Origin: Escherichia coli O127:H6 str. E2348/69
Lineage (GTDB): Bacteria; Pseudomonadota; Gammaproteobacteria; Enterobacterales; Enterobacteriaceae
DNA: 64,000 nucleotides
Assembly (NCBI RefSeq): GCF_000026545.1
Contig: NC_011601.1
Direction: 5' to 3' (one strand)
The position numbers and the translations under genes are program-made. This document shows, in pieces, positions 56,887 to 59,309 of this stretch. Positions within the stretch are counted from its first letter, which is position 1, and each line of letters opens with the position of its first letter. The notes below the pieces were generated by a model. It worked only from the letters and a program-made list of their open reading frames with translations. It had not been told where the DNA came from and searched no databases.

Positions 56887-57861
56887 ATGCAGGCGTTACT
56901 TTTAGAACAGCAGGACGGCAAAACTCTCGCATCAGTACAGACTCTGGACGAAAGTCGCCTGCCGGAAGGCGATGTCACGGTTGATGTTCACTGGTCGAGC
57001 CTGAACTACAAAGATGCGCTGGCGATTACCGGTAAGGGAAAAATCATCCGTAATTTTCCGATGATTCCTGGGATCGATTTTGCCGGAACTGTACGCACCA
57101 GCGAAGATCCGCGTTTTCATGCCGGTCAGGAGGTGTTACTCACTGGCTGGGGCGTTGGTGAAAACCACTGGGGTGGGCTGGCGGAACAGGCGCGAGTGAA
57201 AGGTGACTGGCTGGTTGCCATGCCGCAAGGGCTGGACGCGCGTAAAGCAATGATTATCGGTACTGCCGGTTTTACCGCCATGCTGTGTGTGATGGCGCTG
57301 GAAGATGCCGGTGTTCGCCCGCAGGATGGGGAGATTGTCGTGACGGGTGCCAGTGGTGGCGTCGGCAGTACCGCCGTGGCGCTGCTGCATAAGTTGGGTT
57401 ATCAGGTCGTTGCTGTTTCCGGTCGCGAAAGTACCCATGAATATCTGAAAAGTTTAGGTGCCAGCCGTATTCTTCCTCGCGATGAGTTTGCCGAATCCCG
57501 TCCTCTGGAAAAACAAGTCTGGGCTGGGGCAATTGACACCGTTGGCGACAAAGTGCTGGCAAAAGTGCTGGCGCAAATGAATTACGGCGGCTGCGTGGCG
57601 GCCTGTGGTCTGGCGGGTGGTTTTACTCTGCCAACCACGGTCATGCCATTTATTCTGCGTAATGTCCGTTTGCAAGGGGTGGATTCAGTAATGACGCCAC
57701 CAGCACGCCGCGCACAAGCCTGGCAGCGACTGATCACCGATTTACCGGAATCATTCTATACCCAGGCGGCAAAAGAGATATCTCTGGCAGAGGCACCGAA
57801 GTTTGCCGAGGCCATCATTAATAACCAGATCCAGGGTCGCACGCTGGTGAAGGTTAACTAA
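56887..57861 (+). CDS. acuI: AcuI (YhdH), acrylyl-CoA reductase (MDR zinc-independent family)
   Basis: 324 aa, Rossmann motif VTGASGGVGS. Confidence 0.95.
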   Translation: MQALLLEQQDGKTLASVQTLDESRLPEGDVTVDVHWSSLNYKDALAITGKGKIIRNFPMIPGIDFAGTVRTSEDPRFHAGQEVLLTGWGVGENHWGGLAEQARVKGDWLVAMPQGLDARKAMIIGTAGFTAMLCVMALEDAGVRPQDGEIVVTGASGGVGSTAVALLHKLGYQVVAVSGRESTHEYLKSLGASRILPRDEFAESRPLEKQVWAGAIDTVGDKVLAKVLAQMNYGGCVAACGLAGGFTLPTTVMPFILRNVRLQGVDSVMTPPARRAQAWQRLITDLPESFYTQAAKEISLAEAPKFAEAIINNQIQGRTLVKVN

Positions 57862-58838
57862 CCATTTAGCAGGGAATAATAAGAGAGGGAACTCATTTTG
57901 AAATCATTATTCAATCGGTTAACGGGAAAAGCGGTTAGCCGGACAGCTTTCGTCGAACATCTTGGTTATGAAGTTGTACAACATCATCCAAACTGGAAAG
58001 TCATGATTTCGACTGACCATAAATTGATGCGCATTGATGCTCCACCAAACAGCCATTATTGATACGCCTCCGTCGCCTGTTAGGTTTATGGTGCTTTGCC
58101 TTGGCGACGCTACGCTTAATCTGTTACTGATTTCTGGTACCATGGGGGGAATAATCTGATTTTATTTGATTACAAATTAACCACTTAAACCTATTGAATG
58201 CGGAGCATTGTCAGTCGGTTAATTTTGCGCGCTTTAGCATTCACATCTTTCCAGACGATGCAGTGAAAATTGGGTAATCCCCAGCAACCGCTGCGTAATG
58301 TCGTCTATCTTGTCGCGATCCTGGCATCCCTACATTATTTGTGGTCTGTGAAGATTATCTCATTGCAGCCCCCCATCTTCGCAGGGCTGGCTTTACAGCT
58401 TTTCACCTTACGTTATAAGAAGTTCCGTCGATGATGGCGCTAATTTCGTGAATTGTGCGGCTTGTTGCAAATTACACGGTGTTGAAGGTTATTTACATGT
58501 TAGCTGTTGATTATCTTCCCTGATAAGACCAGTATTTAGCTGCCAATTGCTACGAAATCGTTATAATGTGCGACCTCGTCCTCCCTGACGCAGTTTTTGC
58601 ACTGCGGAAAAGGTGACATTGGCGCAACGAAGGTATATTTTGTTTTTTGCCGGAGGATAGCAGCAGATCGCTGCACAATGTCCGTCAAGTCTAACATTGA
58701 CACTCTGGGGCAAAATAGACCGGCGTCCCGGCCTGCTGGAATTTATCGCTATGCATACAGCTGTCGGGGCATACGCTTTACAGACGGCGGTGAAACGCCT
58801 GTCACAATCACACTAAACAAAGAGTACGGAACCCACTC

Positions 58839-59309
58839 ATGGATATTCGTAAGATTAAAAAACTGATCGAGCTGGTTGAAGAATCAGGCATCTCCGAACT
58901 GGAAATTTCTGAAGGCGAAGAGTCAGTACGCATTAGCCGTGCAGCTCCTGCCGCAAGTTTCCCTGTGATGCAACAAGCTTACGCTGCACCTATGATGCAG
59001 CAGCCAGCTCAATCTAACGCAGCCGCTCCGGCGACCGTTCCTTCCATGGAAGCGCCAGCAGCAGCGGAAATCAGTGGTCACATCGTACGTTCCCCGATGG
59101 TTGGTACTTTCTACCGCACCCCAAGCCCGGACGCAAAAGCGTTCATCGAAGTGGGCCAGAAAGTAAACGTGGGCGATACCCTGTGCATCGTTGAAGCCAT
59201 GAAAATGATGAACCAGATCGAAGCGGACAAATCCGGTACCGTGAAAGCAATTCTGGTCGAAAGTGGACAACCGGTAGAATTTGACGAGCCGCTGGTCGTC
59301 ATCGAGTAA
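58839..59309 (+). CDS. accB: AccB, biotin carboxyl carrier protein
   Basis: 156 aa, Ala/Pro-rich linker and biotinylation motif [10 protein letters not shown]. Confidence 0.97.

Follow-up and report, generated by a model that had tools for sequence, protein, structure and literature searches.

The 977-bp spacer between acuI and accB (57862-58838 of the window, the whole 64,000-nt stretch of Escherichia coli O127:H6 str. E2348/69 DNA that was analysed) contains a 54-codon open reading frame (ORF) that starts with TTG, raising the question of whether this frame encodes a small protein, is what is left of a larger gene, serves as non-coding DNA or RNA, or is there by chance.

The reading frame and its K-12 counterpart

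The coordinates, TTG start, 54 codons and peptide given for this ORF in the initial annotation were reproduced exactly, as was the length of the spacer; the purine-rich stretch, which had been placed 8 nt before the TTG, lies 7 nt upstream of it (Table 1). A gap of 36 nt separates the end of acuI from the ORF, which starts 37 nt past the last base of acuI, and a terminator scan detected no site between the two or anywhere else in the acuI-accB spacer. The 54-aa peptide had no Pfam match even at E = 10 and no NCBIfam match, so the description of it as lacking a recognisable domain holds for the fragment in both collections. An Rfam scan of 57700-58900 at E <= 1 returned nothing in the ORF region (57700-58500), and a repeat search of the spacer yielded only a 14-nt palindrome inside the ORF that looks insignificant. 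An antisense ORF of 74 codons (57919-58143, minus strand) was considered as a gene and rejected; in 6 of 10 strains it is interrupted by an internal stop, and it extends across the deletion junction described below.

Table 1. Positions of the acuI-accB features within the window.
Feature	Position	Strand	Remarks
acuI (yhdH)	56887..57861	+	intact upstream gene
Shine-Dalgarno-like AGAGAGGGA	57882..57890	+	invariant in the DNA alignment of alleles
54-codon ORF	57898..58062	+	K-12 pseudogene yrdF (b4697) plus 7-codon junk tail and stop; TTG start, TGA stop 58060-58062
true yrdF remnant (ORF codons 1-47)	57898..58038	+	homologous to the 5' end of the intact 831-nt gene
deletion junction ATTGATGCTCCACCAAAC	58033..58050	+	hybrid of ATTGATACGGGTCACCAAAC (yrdF) and CTTGATACTCCACTAAAT (msrQ-like)
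yrdE, dead msrQ/yedZ-like gene	58047..58434	+	PGAP: cytochrome b/YedZ pseudogene
highly conserved accBC promoter and leader block	58435..58838	+	bounds the remnant, not part of yrdF
accB	58839..59309	+	intact downstream gene

In shuffled versions of the spacer, an ORF of at least 54 codons appeared on some strand in 894 of 1000 cases; since chance alone gives ORFs this long, the length of the frame is no evidence in itself, and the shuffles would fit a chance ORF without any gene history. However, the DNA of codons 1-47 shares about 98% identity with the beginning of an intact, conserved gene of 276 codons at this position, a homology that refutes this reading and leaves it practically no probability. 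Judged from the alignments, it is this homology to the start of a real 276-aa gene that lifts the ORF beyond chance.

At the same place, K-12 MG1655 carries the pseudogene yrdF (b4697; 3404495-3404637, annotated as 143 bp), directly followed by the pseudogene yrdE (b4646; 3404638-3405031). As yhdH ends at 3404458 and yrdF starts at 3404495, yrdF has the same offset from acuI/yhdH as the window ORF and lies on the same strand, and a collinear global alignment with about 96-97% identity over the ORF indicated that the two are orthologous. Identity over the whole spacer was 100% with E2348/69 and 97% with K-12-type genomes, and the spacer was found in 5425 of the 5426 complete E. coli genomes. 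Both yrdF and yrdE are regarded as pseudogenes in the literature (PMC7648144), and a kan marker cassette inserted into the intergenic DNA immediately 3' of yrdE was accompanied by wild-type-like growth and cell dimensions (bioRxiv 10.1101/359208). The ORF had initially been called unannotated, which is wrong for the species: in addition to b4697 in K-12 MG1655, some RefSeq records carry it as the hypothetical protein WP_000838287.1, and it is absent from the PGAP annotation of E2348/69. It is therefore the already catalogued remnant yrdF and not new, a result that accounts for the disagreement between pipelines, which call a pseudogene, a hypothetical protein or nothing here, and that provides no ground for promoting the ORF to a new small-protein candidate.

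Intact yrdF, the msrQ-like tail and the deletion junctions

Some strains carry about 755 bp more in the spacer and, within it, an intact 831-nt gene, which has the same Shine-Dalgarno sequence, starts from the same TTG and encodes a 276-aa product whose first 47 residues match those of the remnant; PGAP names this product either "DUF1444 domain-containing protein" or "hypothetical protein" (for example, WP_000838294.1). DNA specific to this long allele was present in 670 of the 5426 complete E. coli genomes (about 12%) and the short junction in 4746, and E. albertii has the long form as well, with a 271-aa ORF that is 92% identical. When the window was compared with the long allele, DNA similarity ended at 58038 and resumed at 58142, with 103 bp in place of 858 bp. 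Of the three options initially entertained for the ORF, that of a gene remnant was therefore the one that stood, and it can be made more specific: the ORF joins the first 141 nt of yrdF to msrQ-like DNA read out of frame. An AlphaFold model of intact YrdF, built with 67 sequences, was confident (pLDDT 91.2, pTM 0.80), and its comparison with solved structures gave no meaningful match. In this model, residues 1-47 make up no more than two helices and two strands, which sit at the edge of a larger alpha/beta fold; because they are an edge piece of that fold, the 47-residue fragment is predicted to be unlikely to fold alone.

The nature of the tail became apparent from a tblastn search in which the product of a real msrQ gene, that of E. 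coli E2863, served as the query. Residues 69-95 of MsrQ matched 58047-58127 in a frame differing from that of the ORF, and residues 101-193 matched 58144-58422 in another frame with internal stops; overall, yrdE DNA from 58047 is homologous to MsrQ 69-193, with 62-68% amino-acid identity (E = 2e-28). No intact MsrQ frame is left in yrdE, given a frameshift between residues 95 and 101, internal stops and the loss of the N-terminal 68 residues. In the msrQ-like frame, the TGA of the ORF falls across the Leu and Ile codons TTG ATA, and because the end of the ORF reads msrQ-like DNA out of frame, codons 48-54 are junk.

The working msrPQ of E. coli is found at another locus, flanked by hiuH and zinT. 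A metagenomic contig (L011) that shares 81-85% DNA identity with E. coli, and hence belongs to a different enterobacterial species, carries in order the 3' end of acuI, a 276-aa YrdF homologue (78% identical) and the start of msrP (1934-2083), the last of these with 82.7% DNA identity to functional E. coli msrP and 50 of 61 residues matching. This arrangement implies, as far as gene order can tell, an ancestral acuI-yrdF-msrP-msrQ-accB locus, in which the order beyond msrP would be as proposed; a contig search with a single YrdF protein recovered only E. albertii and did not retrieve the ancestral locus beyond msrP. The long allele of E. coli and the E. albertii locus retain yrdF-msrP intergenic DNA and the first ~35 msrP codons, joined to msrQ from about residue 97. 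A hairpin with a T-run after intact yrdF of the long allele was considered as a terminator and discarded; it sits inside the msrP-like N-terminal coding remnant.

Only the short allele contains msrQ residues 69-96, and only the long allele contains yrdF residues 48-276 and the 5' end of msrP. As each allele keeps DNA that the other has lost, neither derives from the other, and the two would represent independent deletions from acuI-yrdF-msrP-msrQ-accB. E. coli would thus once have had a second msrPQ beside accB, whose wreck remains at 58047-58434. We take STM3377/STM3378 (msrP/msrQ) of Salmonella to adjoin accB. The identification of STM3377 and STM3378 as msrP and msrQ comes from the literature (PMC10083560).

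A likeness between YrdF and MsrQ was also observed. The YrdF N-terminus (M)KSLFNRL (57898-57921) and the C-terminal LRSLFNRL of MsrQ (residues 194-201) match at 7 of 8 positions, the end of yrdE (...LRYKKFRR*, about 58420-58434) falls just short of the expected LRSLFNRL site, and more distant YrdF relatives begin MIKKLLNRLTGK (L012 3449-4084). The shared SLFNRL could be due to chance or could be the trace of an old rearrangement.

When the 54-aa peptide was compared with 5.8 billion proteins, only E. coli entries were found, and their ends varied. The 54-aa form (P0013, 483 contigs) runs ...RID and then TPPNSHY; a 65-aa form (P0023) runs ...RIDTGHQTVE and then NPLDTPLNSHY; an 87-aa form (P0021) runs ...RIDTGHQT and then AIIDTPPSP...; a 77-aa form (P0022) runs ...RIDTG followed by 18 residues in frame with msrQ; and an 85-aa form (P0019) is K-12-like but shifted into the msrQ frame. 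All three frames are used by the tails of the 65-, 87-, 77- and 85-codon alleles. In the 65-codon allele, found in 6 of the 5426 complete E. coli genomes, DNA alignment showed that yrdF is kept to ...GGTGGAAA and joined to ACCCCCTTGATACTCCACTAAATAG, msrQ-like DNA from about residue 62, and that an imperfect direct repeat is present, with the yrdF copy ATTGATACGGGTCACCAAAC and the msrQ-like copy CTTGATACTCCACTAAAT 33 nt from each other. The 54-codon allele corresponds to this allele minus 33 nt, in frame, with the msrQ-side repeat copy kept, and the 87-codon allele equals it minus 31 nt, with the yrdF-side copy kept. From these present-day alleles, the likely order is 276 to 65 to 54 or 87 codons, with the reservation that the 87-codon allele could alternatively be a recombinant between long and short alleles.

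We therefore propose the following course of events. In the ancestor, acuI would have been followed by yrdF (276 aa, DUF1444 family), an msrP-like gene, an msrQ-like gene and accB. On the branch that gave rise to most E. coli, a first deletion would have taken out the part of yrdF from about codon 56 on, the whole of msrP and the portion of msrQ up to about residue 61, leaving the 65-codon frame, and a second deletion of 33 nt, in frame and between the imperfect direct repeats, would have produced the 54-codon frame of the window and K-12. Of the present ORF, codons 1-47 are true yrdF sequence, and codons 48-54 and the stop belong to msrQ-like DNA in the wrong frame. The alleles of 276, 65, 54 or 87 codons are a tidy illustration of repeat-mediated gene decay, and with both independent deletion products of the yrdF-msrPQ cluster still segregating in E. 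coli, the locus would be a natural series for stepwise, microhomology-mediated pseudogene decay.

Several strains with the long allele showed further changes. Many of them (P0002, P0005, P0008 and P0010) have truncated versions of the 276-aa gene (241, 198, 181 and 156 aa), and piN/piS was 0.41 among three E. coli long alleles; the full yrdF may therefore also be decaying within E. coli. In the long-allele strain 23AR0998, IS1A is inserted between intact yrdF and the msrQ-like remnant (L004 2198-2895). One protein called on a Logan contig (P0012, 205 aa) is AccB as far as ...EPLVV and continues as the K-12-type yrdF peptide from residue 4 of the latter; this fusion probably stems from a chimeric assembly or a laboratory construct.

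Constraint on the remnant and on the accBC control region

The pattern of substitutions was assessed among ten short alleles from diverse E. coli strains, a small sample, with acuI from the same ten strains for comparison. The TTG, the Shine-Dalgarno sequence and the open 54-codon frame were kept in 10 of 10 alleles; these open frames carry little weight, given that at ~3% divergence about half of neutral histories would contain no stop. The replacements were K2T, R7Q, G10E, A17T, H24Y/Q, E25K, V27I, W33C, T48A, L50P and H53Y. In remnant codons 2-47, piN/piS was 0.59 (9 amino-acid-changing versus 3 synonymous), and in the whole ORF it was 0.70 (12 versus 4), compared with 0.11 for acuI (8 versus 19; Fisher's test of each against acuI, p = 0.014 and p = 0.005, respectively); the 0.6-0.7 of the remnant rests on 12-16 variable codons and is not demonstrably 1. 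Between species, intact yrdF gave 0.15 (E. albertii) and 0.21 (L011), indicating that the full gene was under purifying selection. Nucleotide diversity (pi), calculated from a MAFFT alignment, was 0.011 in acuI, 0.028 in the yrdF remnant, 0.054 in 58039-58141, 0.037 in 58142-58434, 0.002 in 58435-58838 and 0.004 in accB. As the values of the ORF region (0.028-0.054) are comparable to the piS of acuI (0.034), the ORF DNA drifts about as fast as synonymous sites do. Evolution of the remnant is nearly neutral.

These data bear on the possibility that the remnant has taken on a new role as a functional small protein of 54 aa, made from the retained Shine-Dalgarno sequence and TTG and co-transcribed with acuI. 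Such a protein would be in keeping with the invariance of both signals, with the open frame in every sampled short allele, with the lack of a terminator-like site between acuI and the ORF and with the hypothetical protein called by some pipelines. However, the frame is restricted to E. coli and does not end in one way there, since the 54-, 65-, 77-, 85- and 87-codon alleles terminate in different frames and about 12% of strains have the full gene instead; its substitutions are close to neutral, with three replacements in the seven-codon tail between E2348/69 and K-12; and the fragment is an edge piece without a family match. In one supplement of the ribosome-profiling study of E. coli sORFs by Stringer et al. 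(2021), neither yrdF nor its coordinate is listed, a weak negative as far as that supplement goes. Two of the checks put forward with the initial annotation, conservation of the frame and codon substitution, went against the small protein that it had entertained, which we consider very unlikely.

Because the ribosome-binding site and TTG survive and no terminator follows acuI, a short unstable peptide may still be made from these inherited signals; nothing points to selection maintaining it. That the fragment is still translated within the acuI transcript as a strain-variable peptide of 54 to 87 residues, providing raw substrate for gene birth or playing a minor role, seems very unlikely to us.

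We also considered whether the region acts as non-coding RNA or DNA, either as part of the leader or promoter of accBC or as an element of the 3' UTR of acuI, with the ORF being incidental. The location in the acuI-accB spacer would suit such a role, and accBC is reportedly transcribed with a long leader. Nevertheless, the constrained block with a pi of 0.002 starts only after the pseudogenes, at 58435, which argues against the ORF being part of the accBC leader; the best sigma-70-like site (58540-58567) lies about 480 nt 3' of the ORF; no Rfam match was found in 57700-58500 even at E = 1; and long-allele strains carry about 755 extra bp at this very place. The initial suggestion that the ORF lies within the long accBC leader is thus a poor fit, and a non-coding role is extremely unlikely. 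A literature search for the accBC transcription start yielded nothing usable. Within the conserved block, the Rfam scan gave its only match, a weak full-length one to the Yersinia sRNA Ysr190 (RF02764), at 58542-58641 (25 bits versus a gathering cutoff of 66, E = 0.26), overlapping the sigma-70-like site. The acuI-accB "spacer" is best described as two dead genes and a roughly 400-bp conserved accBC control region.

Homology, the structure of the junction, the allele series and the relaxed constraint all point to the same explanation, namely that the ORF is very probably a decaying pseudogene fragment derived from yrdF that would have no function of its own. The biological significance of this result at large is small, and its practical value is modest.

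Comparison with known genes and protein families

The intact 276-aa protein scored below the gathering cutoff of Pfam DUF1444 (PF07285; 16 versus 23.8 bits), aligning over profile positions 15-254 of 264. With phmmer, intact YrdF had 965 homologues at E < 1e-3 and 370 at E < 1e-10 among 1.84 billion representatives, and 7 of 10 tested homologues scored above the DUF1444 cutoff; intact YrdF is tied to the DUF1444 family because these relatives pass the cutoff. A homologue with 62% identity was observed among plasmid- or phage-like genes (KfrA_N, Aca2_YdiL) on a further contig (L007, Logan ERR11172932), a neighbourhood that suggests that the family is sometimes mobile.

The founding DUF1444 member, YtpQ of P. 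megaterium, is CgoN, an FAD-dependent oxygen-independent coproporphyrinogen III oxidase, and it is the only protein of the family known to have this activity (PMC10965808). The family relation of YtpQ/CgoN is distant and is to the intact YrdF ancestor only, with an identity of about 30% or lower; the CgoN activity should not be inferred for YrdF, and less still for a fragment of 47 residues. Haem synthesis in E. coli follows another route than that of CgoN. Compared with the intact YrdF-like DUF1444-family proteins (WP_000838294.1 and relatives), the window ORF lacks residues 48-276 and with them most of the fold. Likewise, MsrQ/YedZ is the haem-binding subunit of the periplasmic methionine sulfoxide reductase, whereas its homologue in the window is frameshifted, contains stops and lacks the N-terminal third.

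The closest known counterpart of the ORF is K-12 yrdF (b4697), with which it shares its position, the TTG, the 54-codon frame, the position of the stop and the msrQ-like remnant directly after it. The differences between the two are allelic only: three replacements in codons 1-47 (Y24Q, V27I and the junction codon) and three of seven in the tail, which reads APPNSHY in the window and TPLNSYY in K-12. They also differ in how they are delimited, the K-12 annotation being a 143-bp pseudogene, whereas the window ORF runs on to the first stop.
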